Shown here in pieces: positions 6,711-53,241 of a DNA stretch of 64,000 nucleotides. The stretch lies in the IMG/VR virus record IMGVR_UViG_2974643820_000001, one strand, 5' to 3'. The position numbers and the translations under genes are program-made. Source of the DNA: a virus. The notes beneath the pieces were generated by a model. The model worked only from the letters and a program-made list of their open reading frames with translations, did not search any database and had not been told where the DNA came from. Every line of letters starts with the position of its first letter. The stretch's first letter is position 1.

Positions 6711-7280
6711 TCAGCCTTTGAAGTTGATCGGTTTCTGAACCCCAGCGTCAAACGCGGCCTGGGTACGGGTATCGCTCACCACCTGACAGGTCTTATCAAG
6801 ATCGATGCGCGGGTAGCCAAACATGCCAGCAATCAACGAACCAGGGAACTGAGCCAGCTTGGTCTCGTACATCGCGCAGATGTCCAGCTTCTTGGTCTGG
6901 CTGATGCGGAATTCATCACGCCCAGAACTGATCACCACCTGGATCTCTTTGTACAGGCTGGAATCAAACTGAATGTTCTGCTCCTGGATCCACTGCATGA
7001 CAGCCTTGGAACCATCAGCGCCATAACGCCCTTCGAACGTACCTTTGATCACTTCCTTCAGGCCGTCTTTGTACATGTCAGGAATCTGCGCCGTCTCCTG
7101 AACTTTGAGCGTGTAGTTGCTCAGGTAGTTCTCGGAGTCTTTGTTGAACTTCTTGACCTGCTGCTCAGTGCGGTTGAAGTCGTTGAAGTAGCTGATGACA
7201 GTGCCGATGCCGACAACAACAGCAGCCAGTAAAGCCAAACCAACGATCCAACCTGTTGCAATACCCTTAGATTGAGACAT
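6711..7280 (-). CDS. membrane-anchored LemA-like protein, 189 aa
   Basis: N-terminal TM helix, helical body, and C-terminal YETKLAQFPGSLIAGMFGY resembling the LemA YN..I..FP..L.A..FGF motif. Confidence 0.6.
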   Translation of the reverse strand: MSQSKGIATGWIVGLALLAAVVVGIGTVISYFNDFNRTEQQVKKFNKDSENYLSNYTLKVQETAQIPDMYKDGLKEVIKGTFEGRYGADGSKAVMQWIQEQNIQFDSSLYKEIQVVISSGRDEFRISQTKKLDICAMYETKLAQFPGSLIAGMFGYPRIDLDKTCQVVSDTRTQAAFDAGVQKPINFKG

Positions 7281-23027: not shown

Positions 23028-23056
23028 AAAAGAAAGCCGGATATCCTTATCCGGCT
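23028..23056 (-). terminator. terminator closing the tRNA/ncRNA transcript
   Basis: AGCCGGATA/TATCCGGCT stem plus TTCTTTT. Confidence 0.8.
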
Positions 23057-23303
23057 ATGCCACATCGATGGGATGGGTGGAAAGACTACACACTTCGCAC
23101 TGGTACTGCCTTATGGGAGAGCGCGTCAGGAGTCGAACCTGAAGTCGTCGGCGTAGAGAAAGCTATTTGCATTTCACTATCCTCGCCTCGATTTTCTTAA
23201 CTTCCTAAACACCCGATTACGAGAGAGTCGACATGCACATCTTCTAACTCTTCAGGAAGTCACGCCCAAAATATGATTTGCGATGATGGACCCATTCCAT
23301 CTG

Positions 23304-23369
23304 GGGCTGGGTGAGTGGGAGTTGAACCCACAACGCTTGGCTCGCTTTCCCTACCATTCAGGCCACCCA
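23304..23369 (-). pseudogene. degenerate tRNA-like element
   Basis: Acceptor TGGGTGG/TCACCCA and T-arm GTGGG-TTCAACT-CCCAC; no anticodon arm; ends GCCC, not NCCA. Confidence 0.4.
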
Positions 23370-23467
23370 ATTCCAGGAGGTAGAACACCTTTGCCGTCAG
23401 TGTCCATGCGCCAGTCTTCCGCCCTAGCCTCCACTCGCGTCTGGGATTTCCGCGATGATCGCAAATT

Positions 23468-23556
23468 TGGCGGAAGGTGAAGGATTCGAACCTTCGGGGC
23501 TTATAAGCCCCACTCGATTAGCAATCGAGTCCCTTAAACCTCTCGGGCAACCTTCC
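23468..23556 (-). tRNA. tRNA-Ser(GCT)
   Basis: Full class II cloverleaf; CTCGA-TTGCTAA-TCGAG anticodon arm; GGTTCGAATCC; encoded CCA. Confidence 0.95.
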
Positions 23557-23623
23557 AGTATTAGCCCCTCCCTGTCACCATCCAGGAATCCTGTAGGAAT
23601 CGAACCTACACGAGGGGGTTATT

Positions 23624-23707
23624 TGGAGCGGGAGAGCAGGATTCGAACCTGTCCAGTGATCGTCGCCGATGATCAGTCAGCTACTGGCCAACCCCTATGG
23701 CTCCCGC
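23624..23707 (-). ncRNA. tRNA-like RNA with Gly-type acceptor and no canonical anticodon arm
   Basis: GCGGGAG/CTCCCGC-T-CCA, T-loop TTCGAAT, non-canonical interior. Confidence 0.55.
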
Positions 23708-23815
23708 GAAATTAGGACGGGCTTCACACCCGATTGTGCATTTCATCTGCCCGTTTGAAGGGCGACCAGTGCCTTCTGGTCAGATACACAGCGTGGCTGC
23801 AACGCTTACTGTGTT

Positions 23816-23899
23816 TGGTGTGAGTGGATGGATTCGAACCACCGCGCTGTTACGGGGAGATTTACAGTCTCCTGCATTCGACCGCTCTGCCACACTCAC
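23816..23899 (-). tRNA. tRNA-Tyr(GTA)
   Basis: GGAGA-CTGTAAA-TCTCC anticodon arm; long variable arm; encoded CCA. Confidence 0.95.
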
Positions 23900-23902
23900 A
23901 TT

Positions 23903-23976
23903 TGGTCTACCGCTACGTGCTGGGCCACGCTCGAGGACATCGGCCATCCTTCCTCAGCTAATCCACGCAGCGGCAG
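23903..23976 (-). ncRNA. CCA-terminated long-stem RNA
   Basis: 13-bp stem CTGCCGCTGCGTG/CACGTAGCGGTAG followed by A-CCA; sits directly upstream of tRNA-Tyr. Confidence 0.5.
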
Positions 23977-24045
23977 ATTTGTTTCAGAGTGTCCGGTGTA
24001 GCAACCCGTGAGGTGCGCACTACTGTAGCCTCTACACTCTGAATT

Positions 24046-24150
24046 TGGTGGGCGTTACTATCGTCGTCTTCGGATTCCGTTCGGCTATTGGACAGAGGCT
24101 TGGAGCTTGTCGGTTGCGTACTTCGTGCCTATCCACTTTCGTTCACACCC
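24046..24150 (-). ncRNA. CCA-terminated ~105-nt RNA
   Basis: GGGTGT/ACGCCC-A-CCA terminal stem; no T-loop; directly downstream of tRNA-Asn. Confidence 0.5.
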
Positions 24151-24156
24151 ATTGTC

Positions 24157-24232
24157 TGGCGACGATGGCAGGACTTGAACCTGCGACATACGGTTTAACA
24201 GACCGCCGTTCTACCGACTGAACTACATCGTC
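24157..24232 (-). tRNA. tRNA-Asn(GTT)
   Basis: 76-nt canonical cloverleaf; GCGGT-CTGTTAA-ACCGT; encoded CCA. Confidence 0.95.
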
Positions 24233-24233
24233 T

Positions 24234-24431
24234 TTATCCGTGCTTGTTCGCTTCAATCGCCCTTAATTGGGCATCAGCGTCAGCTTTGGTGTCATGTGTC
24301 CCAAGAACCTTCGTCTTGGTGTGGTCAAGGACAACCCACTTGTCGCCTCGCCTTTCAACAAACTCGACAATCTCTTTGTTGTCAGTAGCGAGGCCATCCC
24401 ACTCAGCAATAAAATCACCGAACGTTTTCAT
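24234..24431 (-). CDS. putative internal head protein, 65 aa (MKTFGDFIAE|WDG...)
   Basis: T4 capsid-targeting-like N-terminus; own TAAATA late cassette. Confidence 0.75.
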   Translation of the reverse strand: MKTFGDFIAEWDGLATDNKEIVEFVERRGDKWVVLDHTKTKVLGTHDTKADADAQLRAIEANKHG

Positions 24432-24470
24432 CTTACTCACCAATTGTTTATTGAACAACTGGTTTATTTA
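24421..24470 (-). repeat. 50-bp late-promoter/RBS/start cassette, copy 1
   Basis: 46/50 identical to 24685-24734. Confidence 0.9.
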
Positions 24471-24695
24471 AACCCCGTACACGATGCCACGGCCTTTCGG
24501 TGTCTTACCATTACCGAACCATTTCCCTGTCATCTGAGCAGAGCCTGGTGTACTGGCAACAACAAATTCACTACCACCGTGACCTTCTTTGGTGAATTCG
24601 GCCTTTGGATTCTTCTTCAGGCAGACCTGTTTCCATTCATCAAAGTCATTGTATTCCTTGTTGGCTTCGGTCAGGAATTCTTTAAACGTTTTCAT
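24468..24695 (-). CDS. putative internal head protein, 75 aa (MKTFKEFLTE|ANK...)
   Basis: N-terminus matches T4 IPI MKTFKEF; own CTAAATA late cassette. Confidence 0.78.
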   Translation of the reverse strand: MKTFKEFLTEANKEYNDFDEWKQVCLKKNPKAEFTKEGHGGSEFVVASTPGSAQMTGKWFGNGKTPKGRGIVYGV

Positions 24696-24734
24696 GCTAC
24701 TCTCCAATTGTTTGTTGAACAACTGGTTTATTTA
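24685..24734 (-). repeat. 50-bp late-promoter/RBS/start cassette, copy 2
   Basis: 46/50 identical to 24421-24470. Confidence 0.9.
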
Positions 24735-25010
24735 GGTGCTCCCGAGGCGGCATTTCAATTCCGCGATCCCATCACGCCTGCCGTAGACCGGAGCTTGCTG
24801 GCAGTCCAACAATATTTGGTGTTCCCTGAGGGAGTCGAACCCCCAACTTCCGTTATTCTCAACAACCTTCCCCAGTCCGTGCAGTCTGGTACTCAGATGT
24901 CTACCTTCACGTTCGCCTGTATCCAAGCCTATCTCTTCATTTAACCTTACAGCCTCAATCTGCACGGGTGAAAGAGCTTCAGAGATACTGCCATACAACG
25001 GGAACAAAAC

Positions 25011-25113
25011 TGGCGGGGTCTGAGGCTTTTCACCTCACCTGCTGGGTTTGGCCGCCCAGCCGTTCTCTATGAGGATTCGCTGTCCGGACAGCTATCCCTT
25101 AAACTATCGCCCC
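25011..25113 (-). ncRNA. degenerate tRNA-like RNA ending GCCA
   Basis: GGGG/CCCC-G-CCA ends; TAGTTTAAGG D-loop-like start; TGAGG-TGAAAAG-CCTCA T-arm-like hairpin. Confidence 0.4.
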
Positions 25114-25119
25114 TCAATT

Positions 25120-25199
25120 TGGTTGGAGGAGAAGGATTCGAACCTTCAACGGCTGCCGCCATCCCCTCAGGGAATGTCTACCCCTTCCATCATCCTCCA
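25120..25199 (-). ncRNA. Leu-type class II tRNA-like RNA with collapsed anticodon arm
   Basis: Perfect acceptor TGGAGGA/TCCTCCA-A-CCA, T-arm, Leu-like D-arm and variable arm; anticodon arm is only TCCC-TGAG-GGGA. Confidence 0.65.
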
Positions 25200-25204
25200 A
25201 ATTA

Positions 25205-25950
25205 TTGTGTGACCAACCAAGGACTGTCAACCCTTTATCCCGTTTGTGCATGATCAGTTCATGCAGGCCTCTTTGTGCTGCCTCACGGCAACGCGCTTCT
25301 GCTGGTCATTGGCTTGCACCGTAGCCTCACAACAGGCGTTTATTTTTCCAGGGCTTTCCACTTGCAAGTCTTGACCATACAGGGATACGGGCTTGCAAGA
25401 TCGGGTTGGTAACAACTCTGATGGCTCTGAACGTTCTTTTCACTAGTCATCCACAACTGATATTCGGATGTCCAGAGCCATCAGAGTTGCAGCCAGGCTA
25501 CAACCCGCACTTCAGTGTCTTCGTCACACTTCGGCACTTGTCCTCTACGCTCGGACCAAACGAGGCTGGCCGACATAAACATAACACCACTCATCACTAG
25601 AGCGAGGATGTGGTTGATAGCCACGATGTATGCCTCTGTCGCAGAGTGATCACGCTTGTCAGGATGATCACTGTTTTGCAGTACCTGCCGCAAAGTAGAG
25701 TTCTCTGAACTTCAATGACCCCTCATCTTGTACTATCGCCGTCGGGAACGTTCACCATGTGAATCAAACCTTTAGGTTAAGTTCAATGTCCAGAGGACTC
25801 TACTTTGCGTTGTGGGGGCAAACCCCCACACGGCTACTTCTTTAACAGGGATTGCTAGCCCTGGGGATTCCACTGTTTAAGGCTTTATCCCATAACGCCT
25901 GAGGCGTGTTCTCAAACTAATAGAGTTTGCTTAATTGCAAACTGATGTGG
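25205..25950 (-). ncRNA. structured non-coding segment
   Basis: 17-bp IR 25413-25429/25473-25489; 11-bp IR 25690-25700/25798-25808; several hairpins; no credible RBS-led ORF. Confidence 0.5.
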
Positions 25951-25954
25951 CTAT

Positions 25955-26477
25955 GGGACACATCTGTGACGTATCTCTTATCCGGATTCGAACCGGATTT
26001 ATCCTGGCAGAGGAATCTAACCCCTTTACCTCGTGGCAACGAGGACGGTCAACAGACCTCAAGATACGTCACAGATGTGTTGCCCGTCACTTGCCAGAGA
26101 TCGGGGCGGATGGTAAGACTTCGCTCACATCTGGGAGGACACTGCTGTCGTTCGCGACCGACAACCACTCAGATATATTTCAATCATGTTGTGGTGCAAT
26201 GCCCTCTCAGATGTCGGCGGGAGCTTATTAATCACACCCTCCCGCCTATTGTTAGTGCGCCGAATTTTGTTATGAGGAGTCGGAAGACCTCACTGACTTA
26301 TAGGCTATTACGCCGCCATCAGAACTACATCATCGTTTGCATTTATTTTTGTGGTCTGTTTCTAAAAACCCGCAAAGTCACGCACAACGAAAACGAAAAC
26401 CTGTTTGAGCACAAGACGCCATGTCCTGGGTTCACATCGAAGTGTTTGTCTAGTGCCCAAACAGCTTTTCGTTCAGT
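25955..26477 (-). ncRNA. tmRNA-like structured RNA (3' end uncertain)
   Basis: Own promoter at 26484-26509; 21-bp helix; resume motif and tag frame; stop-codon hairpin; H-type pseudoknot; 19-bp helix enclosing a TTCGAAT T-arm. Confidence 0.55.
26305..26340 (-). other. tmRNA-type proteolysis tag reading frame ANDDVVLMAA**
   Basis: AAAAATAAAT|GCA AAC GAT GAT GTA GTT CTG ATG GCG GCG TAA TAG; ten codons, as in E. coli ANDENYALAA. Confidence 0.7.
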
Positions 26478-51050: not shown

Positions 51051-53241
51051 TATAGAATATGCCCCGCTCAAGACGGGGTTCAAGATAGAAGACGTCAAAT
51101 TGCGTATGGACCAAACGTTCATGCGCAAGCCGTCTGTGCGCGCCCCTCGTGTCCAGTTGATGTTGACAGATGAGCAGGAAGATGAATTCGTCGAATGCGC
51201 GATGGATGCCCATTACTTCGCTGCCAACTACTACAAGATCACGACTATCGATAAAGGCTTCATCCTATTCGATATGCACGACTATCAGAAGCAGTTGTTC
51301 CATGACTTCCAGGATCACCGCTTCAACGCCGTTGTCCAGGCACGTCAGTCAGGTAAATGTGTGAAGGGTGACAGCATCGTCGAGGTCTACGACACAGTCA
51401 GCCAAGAAGAGTTTAAAGTCACCATCGAGGAGCTTCACAGCCGCTTCGAGGGACCGAACCACGCCGAGCCACTGAACGCCTTTGGCAAACACGATAAGTT
51501 CGTAGACAGCCGCTTCGGCAAGCGTTATTTCGTTCGCTGTGATATAGGCTGGGTGCCTGTCATCGCCGCGCACAAGACCAAGCAGTATCAGGAATATGTT
51601 GTCGTCACTTCCAGCGGCCGTCGTATCAACGTGGCCGATGATCACATGTTCTTCAATCAGAATATGAAGGAAGTGTTTGCCAAAGATCTGGTTGCTGGTT
51701 CACAGCTGATGACCGAAGAAGGTCTAGAAGAAGTCGTTGAGGTATGGCAGACTGGTGAGATGCACCACATGTATGACCTACAGGTGAAATCCAGCGACCA
51801 GCGCTACTACACCAACGGCTTCCTCAGTCATAACACGACTGTTGTGGCTGCGTTCCTTCTCTGGTATGCGATGTTCCACTCTGACAAAGAGATCGCGGTA
51901 CTGGCGAACAAAGAGAAGCAGGCGATTGAAATCCTTGACCGTATTCGTAAGGCGTATCAGGATTTGCCATTCTTCATCCAGCAGGGCTGTGAGAAGTTCG
52001 GCTCCACGCTCATCGAATTCGAGAACGGCTCGAAGATATACGCCTATGCAACATCTTCTGACTCCATCCGTGGTCGATCTGTATCGCTCCTGTATGTGGA
52101 CGAAGTGGCGTTCATCGAAAACGACTTTGAATTCTGGGAGTCAACATTCCCTGCGATTGCATCTGCAGAGACTTCACGTTGTATCCTGACCAGTACACCG
52201 AAAGGCCAGCGCGGGTTGTTCTACGACATCGTCACCAAGGCGAACCCAGAACATCCTCAGTACAACGACTTCAATCTCACAGAGGTTCCATGGTATCGTG
52301 TGCCAACATACACCAAGGATCCAAACTGGGAATCCAAGCAGAGGGCGAAGCTGGGCGATGCACGTTTCGATCAGGAATTTGGCATCAAGTTCCGTGGGTC
52401 GGTCGGTTCACTTATCCCGGCCAAGTGCCTGGACAAGATGACCTCGAAGCTGTATCAGGAGCCGAACGAGTTCACCAAGATCTATCACGACTACGATCCG
52501 AAGCGAATCTATATGGGTATCGCAGATACAGGCAAGGGCGTCGAGGGGGATTATTCTGTGCTGACCATTATCGACATCACAGACTATCCTCACAAGATCG
52601 CAGCCAAGTATCGAAACAACACGATACCTCCAATGATGTATGCGTACACAATCGCCGATATGGGCGAGAAGTATGGGACGTGTCCAATGTTGGTAGAAAC
52701 CAACAACGACGTGGGTGGACAGGTAATCACAATTCTATATCAGGAAATTGAATATCCAGAGATCATCTTCACCACAACAGATGCGAAGGGTACTGGTAAG
52801 CGAATCGGCGGTAGGCGGCCTGAACCTGGTATCAACACCAACAAGAAGGTGCGCACAAACGGCTGTGCCAACCTGAAAGCCCTGATCGAAAGGGAGATGC
52901 TGGTTGTTGACGATCAAGACACGATAGATGAACTCAGTACATTCGTATGGACTGGGACAAGGTATGAAGCCGATGATGGTTGTCATGATGACTGTGTAAT
53001 GCCTCTTGTGCTGTATGCATGGGCGGTGAAACAAGAATGGTTTAGTGACCTCACCAATTCCAGTATCTCAGTCGACATGAGAGGCCGCTTGTCTGCGATG
53101 GAAGAATCGCAGATGATGCCTTTCGGTGGTGTGTTGTCGGCTCCTGATCCGTTCTCTGTGGAGAGTGTGCCAGGATTTGGTGGCGTGCAGGTTTATGACG
53201 AACGTTCTGGCATGTCCATGGAAGAATGGCTGAGACGGTGA
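51031..53241 (+). CDS. gp17: terminase large subunit gp17 with intein, 736 aa
   Basis: ARQSGK|T Walker A; LLYVDEVAF Walker B; DDCVM nuclease motif. Confidence 0.95.
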   Translation: MAYQKRDIEYAPLKTGFKIEDVKLRMDQTFMRKPSVRAPRVQLMLTDEQEDEFVECAMDAHYFAANYYKITTIDKGFILFDMHDYQKQLFHDFQDHRFNAVVQARQSGKCVKGDSIVEVYDTVSQEEFKVTIEELHSRFEGPNHAEPLNAFGKHDKFVDSRFGKRYFVRCDIGWVPVIAAHKTKQYQEYVVVTSSGRRINVADDHMFFNQNMKEVFAKDLVAGSQLMTEEGLEEVVEVWQTGEMHHMYDLQVKSSDQRYYTNGFLSHNTTVVAAFLLWYAMFHSDKEIAVLANKEKQAIEILDRIRKAYQDLPFFIQQGCEKFGSTLIEFENGSKIYAYATSSDSIRGRSVSLLYVDEVAFIENDFEFWESTFPAIASAETSRCILTSTPKGQRGLFYDIVTKANPEHPQYNDFNLTEVPWYRVPTYTKDPNWESKQRAKLGDARFDQEFGIKFRGSVGSLIPAKCLDKMTSKLYQEPNEFTKIYHDYDPKRIYMGIADTGKGVEGDYSVLTIIDITDYPHKIAAKYRNNTIPPMMYAYTIADMGEKYGTCPMLVETNNDVGGQVITILYQEIEYPEIIFTTTDAKGTGKRIGGRRPEPGINTNKKVRTNGCANLKALIEREMLVVDDQDTIDELSTFVWTGTRYEADDGCHDDCVMPLVLYAWAVKQEWFSDLTNSSISVDMRGRLSAMEESQMMPFGGVLSAPDPFSVESVPGFGGVQVYDERSGMSMEEWLRR
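51358..51834 (+). mobile_element. mini-intein, 159 aa, in the TerL Walker A
   Basis: Begins CVKGDS, block B ADDHMF, ends YTNGFLSHN, followed by T; no LAGLIDADG motif. Confidence 0.92.

Follow-up and report, generated by a model that had tools for sequence, protein, structure and literature searches.

A chain of conserved, tRNA-ended RNA modules around three tRNA genes in a phage related to Agtrevirus Shigella phages

Results

Three canonical tRNA genes between positions 23,028 and 25,204 of the IMG/VR virus record IMGVR_UViG_2974643820_000001 (64,000 nucleotides, hereafter the window) are interleaved with RNA units that end like tRNAs, and the locus raises the question of what these units are and why they carry such ends. 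The original prediction, made from the nucleotide sequence, described them as a processed set of tRNA mimics that act as decoys or aminoacyl carriers. Here, we report their anatomy, conservation, covariation, and cassette-like distribution, and from these we infer a processing route and a possible function. All RNA genes of the stretch lie on the minus strand, as do all features given below unless noted, in a head-to-tail chain of ≈2.2 kb that runs from 25230 to 23035. The chain comprises three canonical tRNAs (Asn, Tyr, and Ser-GCT), two small open reading frames (ORFs), and ≈10 to 12 non-tRNA modules; the division into modules is our own, and these are named U01 to U12 in transcription order. 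A sigma-70-like promoter (25230-25201; TTGACA-18-AATAAT, with 11/12 consensus matches) and an intrinsic terminator (23056-23035; a 9-bp stem and then a U-rich tail) enclose the whole chain, in which units are separated by A/U-rich spacers of 3 to 6 nt. The window comes from an Ackermannviridae phage; its nearest relatives, with ≈95% identity across the matched parts, are Gloob, Ag3, and MK-13, which are Shigella phages of the genus Agtrevirus. We consider it fairly probable that the stretch is a single minus-strand small-RNA operon of an Agtrevirus-like Ackermannviridae phage in which tRNA-type ends serve as adaptors for other RNAs, a reading developed below.

Nine units, the same nine for which CCA ends had been listed originally, terminate in an encoded NCCA on the minus strand. 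In transcription order these are U01 (25120; ACCA followed by AAU), U02 (25011; GCCA then GUU, with AAU or AUU in relatives), U03 (24817; ACCA then AAU), tRNA-Asn (24157; GCCA then GAC), U04 (24046; ACCA then AAU), U05 (23903; ACCA then AAU), tRNA-Tyr (23816; ACCA then AAC), U08 (23624; UCCA then AAU), and tRNA-Ser (23468; GCCA then AAU), with CCA-AAU found in six of the nine. Two more units carry extended tails, UCCCA at 23114 in U12 and GCCCCA at 23302 in U11. Within 23465-25122 (1.66 kb), the minus strand carries six copies of the hexamer CCAAAT; since the whole 64 kb contains 26 copies on both strands, only ≈0.4 are expected in this interval. The T-loop motif GGTTCRANTCC is likewise concentrated here, with 10 occurrences in the window, all on the minus strand, versus 0.41 expected. 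Nine of these lie inside the array, where the canonical tRNAs own three and six non-tRNA units keep a canonical T loop. The T arms of U12, U11, and U09 account, respectively, for the stretches 23115-23140, 23304-23369, and 23585-23610 that had been taken for T-arm remnants.

That Ser, Tyr, and Asn are the only real tRNAs of the array is borne out by the Rfam tRNA model (RF00005), whose gathering threshold of 29 bits is passed by tRNA-Asn(GUU) (24157-24232, 75.8 bits), tRNA-Tyr(GUA) (23816-23899, 57.3 bits), and tRNA-Ser(GCU) (23468-23556, 55.4 bits) alone. No non-canonical unit matches RF00005 even at an E-value of 10, and the relatives' versions of U01 and U08 do not pass either. ARAGORN calls the same three tRNAs at the same positions, plus an odd "Ser-TGA" that corresponds to U01 (25120-25199), a class-II-like pseudo-tRNA with a 7-bp acceptor stem, a canonical T arm, and an ACCA end. 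This "Ser-TGA" has C33 and a D arm and an anticodon arm that are mutually exclusive, and scores 24.5 bits against the tRNA-Sec model, for which the gathering score is 47. Across the whole window, Rfam reports no family at threshold besides the three tRNAs. The other families that appear at an E-value of 10 were rejected as spurious, being plastid UTR models that hit tRNA features in antisense, and a transfer-messenger RNA (tmRNA, RF00023) identity was rejected as well, the array giving only an 11-bit T-arm fragment.

The modules fall into groups according to which parts of the tRNA they retain. U01, U03, and U08 have an acceptor stem, a T arm, and a 3' NCCA. U03 (24817-25005) is 189 nt long and combines the acceptor GUUCCC/GGGAAC, a T arm, and ACCA with a large insert. 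U08 (23624-23707), an 84-nt tRNA-like RNA, has the acceptor GCGGGAG/CUCCCGC and U73-CCA; an A-C mismatch replaces the outermost pair of its T arm. It has no D arm, and ARAGORN labels its copies in relatives "Ile-GAT." These three share with canonical tRNA (RF00005) the acceptor stem, the GGUUCRANUCC T arm, and the encoded NCCA, but differ in that the D arm or the anticodon arm of the modules is absent or replaced by inserts of 30 to 130 nt. U11 and U12 pair a stem and a T arm with the irregular tails noted above. U11 (23302-23369) is a short tRNA-like unit with acceptor UGGGUGG/UCACCCA, a D-like loop, and no anticodon arm, while U12 (23114-23267) is a 154-nt tRNA-shaped RNA (acceptor 23267-23261 with 23125-23119; T arm 23142-23126) with an interior that consists of a long arm 1 and an arm 2 closing a largely conserved 32-nt loop, in which GUGAAAUGCA is invariant. 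Finally, U02, U04, and U05 combine a stem with NCCA and lack a canonical T arm. U02 (25011-25113) is cloverleaf-like: it has three arms, is closed by the 4-bp stem GGGG/CCCC, and ends in a GCCA tail. U04 (24046-24151) has closing stem UGGGUGU/ACGCCCA, CCA, and a variable interior with conserved CGAA-type motifs. In U05 (23903-23977), a closing stem of 14 bp (23977-23964 with 23919-23906) encloses a core of 44 nt (23963-23920) that is nearly invariant and contains hairpin P2, and CCA (23905-23903) forms the end; just ahead of U05 lies U05a (23983-24043), a hairpin RNA that is closed by a 10-bp stem and lacks CCA.

Conservation of these units was evaluated in 27 related loci, of which GenBank phages supplied 14 and IMG/VR supplied 13; many are closely related, and alignments were de-duplicated to 11 to 16 sequences. 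U05a is found in 27/27 loci with a median identity of 95%, followed by U05 (24/27, 97%), U04 (23/27, 82%), U02 (22/27, 92%), and U12 (20/27, 78%). For comparison, the two flanking protein genes are present in 20 to 23 of 27 loci with a median identity of 78%, so that U02, U05, and U05a (92-97%) are more conserved than the genes beside them. The CCA is retained in 22/22 copies of U02, 23/23 of U04, 10/10 of U08, 19/20 of U12, and 21/24 of U05, whereas the sequence beyond it differs. The modules behave as cassettes, present or absent as whole blocks and in varying order, among Agtrevirus, Kuttervirus, Limestonevirus, and Taipeivirus. In some slots, relatives carry real tRNAs instead (Met or CAT, Ile, Trp, Gln, or a second Ser or Tyr). 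Dickeya phage LIMEstone1 has only one tRNA, yet keeps seven modules (U02, U03, U03b, U04, U05a, U05, and U07). The earlier observation that interiors diverge between retained terminal stems and CCA ends holds over the 27 loci, and the view that the non-canonical units are not products of random decay is upheld: they are conserved, structured, tRNA-ended modules, several of which exceed the flanking genes in conservation. Two origins were considered and rejected: recent decay of real tRNAs, as U01 versus Ser tRNAs and U08 versus Ile tRNAs align in the T arm alone, and a host origin, as likeness to E. coli DNA is limited to tRNA-Asn.

Covariation across the Ackermannviridae, which had been put forward as a check on the original prediction, is strong for U05 and U12 and moderate for U02. 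In U05, aligned from equal-length slices of 14 distinct sequences, 98.4% of cells are paired and 15/27 pairs have changed on both sides; none of 500 shuffles was as good (a count that is not a probability), and slid controls were not close either. The Taipeivirus stem is wholly rewritten (GGAACCCGGUU/AACCGGGUUCC) with pairing maintained, and the numerous G-U pairs of U05 are consistent with RNA of the minus strand only. In U12, 100% of cells are paired with nine compensatory pairs, the acceptor and T stems included. The 7-bp acceptor covaries (GGGCGUG/CGCGCUC versus GAGUGUG/CGCACUC), and the stem of arm 2 has been rewritten three times around its loop. U02 shows six compensatory pairs, U05a has two inner pairs with compensatory changes, and changes in U04 are one-sided only and all compatible with the closing stem. 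Selection on RNA pairing is thus evident for U05, U12, and U02, both from their compensatory changes and from the G-U pairs that they keep.

We next consider U05, the core of which extends beyond this phage family. The arrangement GAUUAG-P2-GGAUGGCCGAUG-P2'-UGGCCCAG is found in ≈245 phage records, almost all of them from Ackermannviridae, with further copies in Schitoviridae (Klebsiella phage KP8, Escherichia phages UE-S5a and PBM-2, and several ≈71-kb contigs) and in Chaseviridae (Erwinia phage Fifi44). Copies from these latter two families have a closing stem of ≈21 bp with compensatory changes of its own and no CCA, and their P2 covaries (GAGGA/UCCUC, GUGGA/UCCAC, and GCGGG/CCCGU). The U05 pattern has zero matches in 185,579 bacterial and archaeal species, each represented by one genome, and U05 matches no Rfam family. 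Since the core recurs without CCA in two other families, we regard it as the conserved, phage-specific part and the stem-CCA end as a fitting specific to Ackermannviridae. A tmRNA-like tag region lies upstream of the array (26290-26420; GCA AAC GAU GAU GUA GUU CUG AUG GCG GCG UAA UAG, encoding ANDDVVLMAA). In Schitoviridae, a U05-like module is directly 5' of the same tag RNA, and in Erwinia phage Fifi44 the two are ≈150 nt apart in reversed order; the regions concerned are 6996-7100 of locus L039, 1569-1650 of L045, and 750-830 of L047. The U05-like RNA and the tag RNA may act together. The invariant U05 loop includes AAGGAUG. A CsrA/RsmA sponge of the CsrB type was considered for the array and rejected, given 34 GGA versus 34.5 expected from dinucleotide shuffles (z = -0.13).

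The closest known counterparts are two RNAs of phage T4, rnaC (species 1) and rnaD (species 2), for which the function is unknown (PMC3014915). Like the modules described here, these are non-decoding RNAs within a phage tRNA cluster, co-oriented and arranged head to tail, only a few nucleotides apart. The punctuation is identical, a CCA followed by AAU: T4 tRNA-Arg ends in ACCA|AAU, directly followed by rnaD, which ends in CACCA|AAU and is followed by rnaC. T4 rnaC has an acceptor-like stem and a canonical T arm, as do U12, U03, and U08, and rnaD has a terminal stem ending in CACCA without a T arm, as in U02, U04, and U05. This likeness does not extend to sequence. BLAST comparison to T4 rnaC/rnaD gave a match confined to the 13 to 18 nt of the T loop, and a covariance model of U12 (R1) scores rnaC at 19.1 bits, approximately the same as T4 tRNA-Leu (16.8 bits). 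T4 has two such RNAs, whereas this array has ≈10 modules that are swapped as cassettes among genera; unlike rnaC or rnaD, one of them (U05) is common to two other phage families. The array RNAs are new members of the T4 rnaC/rnaD kind by design, outside those sequence families. A search of the literature on tRNA-like or small RNAs of Ackermannviridae returned nothing relevant.

Discussion

We favor, as the reasonably probable interpretation and by analogy with T4 rnaC and rnaD, that the tRNA-type ends are adaptors for the excision and stability of cargo RNAs. In enterobacteria, CCA is encoded in every tRNA gene; RNase P recognizes an acceptor-type helix with RCCA, RNase E cuts A/U-rich trailers, and 3' exonucleases halt at CCA. 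Given these habits, a stem followed by NCCA and an A/U spacer can be read as a device for excising a cargo with a protected end. Host RNase P would cleave at the 5' side of each stem, RNase E would cleave the A/U spacer, and 3' exonucleases would trim back to the CCA, such that every module would come free as a separate stable RNA, in the manner of T4 rnaC and rnaD. The conserved interior would then be the working cargo, and its most likely partner would be either a tRNA-binding protein or a factor conserved among enterobacteria. For modules that are conserved, structured, tRNA-ended, and packed like the T4 cluster, the natural inference is that the tRNA maturation machinery processes them. 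As to the "processed set of tRNA mimics" of the original prediction, the conserved, structured, tRNA-ended set is observed, and its processing would follow from the layout. There is precedent for substrates of RNase P other than tRNA that present a stem and CCA, namely precursor 4.5S RNA and the C4 RNA of phages P1 and P7, and a long terminal helix with NCCA is the minimal feature set recognized by bacterial RNase P. Both RNAs have such a helix and NCCA as in U04 and U05, with unrelated interiors; RNase P cleavage of the array is a prediction.

Several observations weigh against this interpretation. The accumulation of the RNAs, their ends, and the enzymes that would process them are all deduced from the arrangement of the locus. 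U01, U03, U07, U08, U09, and U11 have too little variation or too few homologues for covariation, and comparative support is lacking both for U01, which has the same sequence in all three of its carriers, and for U09, which occurs in this phage alone. Where covariation is found, shuffle controls overstate its significance because many of the 27 loci are close relatives. A candidate GGCC:GGCC pseudoknot in U05 is invariant in sequence, so covariation is uninformative for it. Thermodynamic z-scores are unremarkable except for U05 (-3.5) and U05a (-2.1), and since they fall mostly within 2 standard deviations of shuffles, we regard them as uninformative for these RNAs. Furthermore, at the only strong sigma-70-like promoter, the -10 box stops 1 base before the U01 acceptor stem (a junction within 25193-25206), and the predicted transcription start falls inside the U01 acceptor strand; U01 therefore needs upstream read-through or is not made intact.

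Among the alternatives, the one that survives best, although we think it improbable, is that the modules are tRNA-mimic decoys that soak up host defense or toxin proteins directed at tRNA (anticodon nucleases or enzymes acting on the acceptor or CCA) and so spare the real tRNAs. The canonical T loop of six non-tRNA units and the acceptor-like stem with NCCA kept by most would suit such a role, as would the persistence of the mimics in clusters where the real tRNAs vary between phages. No unit has a host homologue, as expected of a countermeasure made by the phage. Host defenses that cut tRNA anticodon loops or clip CCA tails are described in recent preprints, which makes a decoy role at the acceptor end conceivable. 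On the other hand, none of the units reproduces an anticodon stem-loop known to be a nuclease target, such as that of PrrC; the nearest mimics are imperfect 7-nt loops, CUGAUCA in U08 and CCUGAGG (with C33) in U01. No link was found between the modules and a particular defense system, and U05, the most conserved unit, occurs without a tRNA-type end in two other phage families. A related and more doubtful proposal is that the stem-NCCA modules, above all U05, are protein-binding RNAs directed against host immunity that acts on tRNA ends. They could, for example, be competitive, non-signaling substrates for nucleases that clip the CCA or the acceptor stem. If true, this would define an RNA-based class of anti-defense delivered via the tRNA maturation pathway.

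It is also unlikely that the modules are processing punctuation only, that is, elements that steer RNase P, RNase E, or RNase III in the release of tRNAs and small-ORF mRNAs and that leave functionless pieces. Head-to-tail packing with conserved CCA and A/U spacers is what such elements would look like, the 21-bp stems of the Schitoviridae U05 copies resemble RNase III substrates, and U03b forms the leader of ORF84. Punctuation has no need, however, of invariant single-stranded cores such as those of U05 (44 nt) and U12 (a 32-nt loop, largely conserved), nor would it account for seven modules in LIMEstone1, where there is one tRNA to release. The U05 core, moreover, is kept over three phage families in different contexts.

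We regard as very unlikely that the units are decaying pseudo-tRNAs or recombination debris, retained by a cluster that is young or reshuffled by homing endonucleases, or that they are DNA-level elements. Individual units have this appearance: U09, unique to this phage, looks like a rearranged T-arm fragment, and U01 is identical in its only three carriers. Homing endonuclease genes in or next to the cluster in relatives, and the real tRNAs (Met, Ile, Trp, and Gln) in some of the same slots, also point this way. For U05, U12, and U02, debris is contradicted by the compensatory changes and kept G-U pairs; U01 and U08 are, by alignment, not simple deletion derivatives of real Ser or Ile tRNAs, and several modules exceed the flanking genes in conservation. 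Least probable of all is the other role originally proposed, in which host synthetases would charge units such as U08 or U01 with amino acids for use in a nonribosomal reaction: acceptor stems with NCCA are conserved and the U08 acceptor is of the Gly type (G1-C72, C2-G71, G3-C70, and U73, a set that we take to match the acceptor and discriminator identity elements of E. coli GlyRS), but anticodon identity elements are absent, no aminoacyl-transferase gene is seen beside the array in the relatives' loci examined, U12 and U11 have irregular tails (UCCCA and GCCCCA), and the relatives of U05 without CCA weaken the case for charging of U05.

To our knowledge, no role has been established for species 1 and 2 of T4 in approximately fifty years, in part because two such genes in a single phage looked like an oddity. 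In the present array, a whole chain of modules follows this design, which provides concrete, alignable RNA families with defined invariant cores that are suited to deletion, pull-down, and structural work.

Additional features of the locus

The promoter-proximal half of the array includes both small ORFs. U01 is shared with phages Ag3 and MK-13 only, at 100% identity, and U03 is found in five loci, with tRNA(CAT) in the same slot of other phages. U03 is followed by U03b (24723-24816), a conserved structured leader with a 3' part formed by the TAAATAAACC... motif ahead of ORF84. A hidden protein gene over U03/U03b was considered and rejected, as the start of the 91-codon sense ORF is not conserved and its reading frame is disrupted by a frameshift in phage May. 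ORF84 (24468-24722) is a small protein gene with a weak match to a PHROG of unknown function; its body has no homologue in the 27 related loci, where the match is limited to the first ≈38 nt beside the shared motif. ORF74 (24234-24458) encodes a small protein of phrog_3684 (unknown function) and is present in 18/27 loci. A nearly identical TAAATAAACCAGTTGTTCAA(C/T)AAACAATTGG motif precedes both ORFs (74 and 84 amino acids), at 24459-24500 and 24723-24760, and this pair looks like a duplicated cassette of promoter and ribosome-binding site.

In the terminator-proximal half, U07 (23709-23813) comprises three conserved hairpins without CCA; it is found in five loci and contains an insertion in phage P46FS4. 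U09 (23557-23622), found in this phage alone among the 27 loci, consists of a T-arm-like hairpin and a second hairpin within a CCCC/GGGG stem, and U11a (23370-23465) is a conserved spacer RNA with hairpins, present in six loci. Within U12, positions 23192-23210 form a conserved hairpin CUUCCU...AGGAAG followed by UUAAGAAA, which the Taipeivirus copies lack. The hairpin and UUAAGAAA resemble the type I-F CRISPR (clustered regularly interspaced short palindromic repeats) repeat, a hairpin followed by the 3' handle CUAAGAAA, and chance is a possible explanation. Distant from the array, ARAGORN calls an 88-nt "tRNA-Asp" with the unusual anticodon ATC (51439-51526), which the Rfam tRNA model does not report at the gathering score.

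Existing annotation of these modules is inconsistent (L011 2016-2099 and 3169-3248; L005 1789-1877; L014 2711-2947; and L008 2045-2260). In GenBank records, U08 is given as tRNA-Ile, U01 as tRNA-Ser, and a neighboring unit as "tRNA-OTHER, pseudo, 15-bp intron," while "hypothetical protein" ORFs of the plus strand are drawn over RNA modules and elsewhere modules have no feature. The modules are accordingly of relevance to annotation, being unlabeled, hidden under ORFs, or called tRNAs in the records examined.

Finally, homing endonuclease genes (HNH or other) are found in or beside the array in relatives (L008 2711-3124; L006 1-6; L010 4510-4986; and L012 4979-5184), a placement that resembles that of segB in T4, and these enzymes may drive the cassette-like reshuffling of modules.

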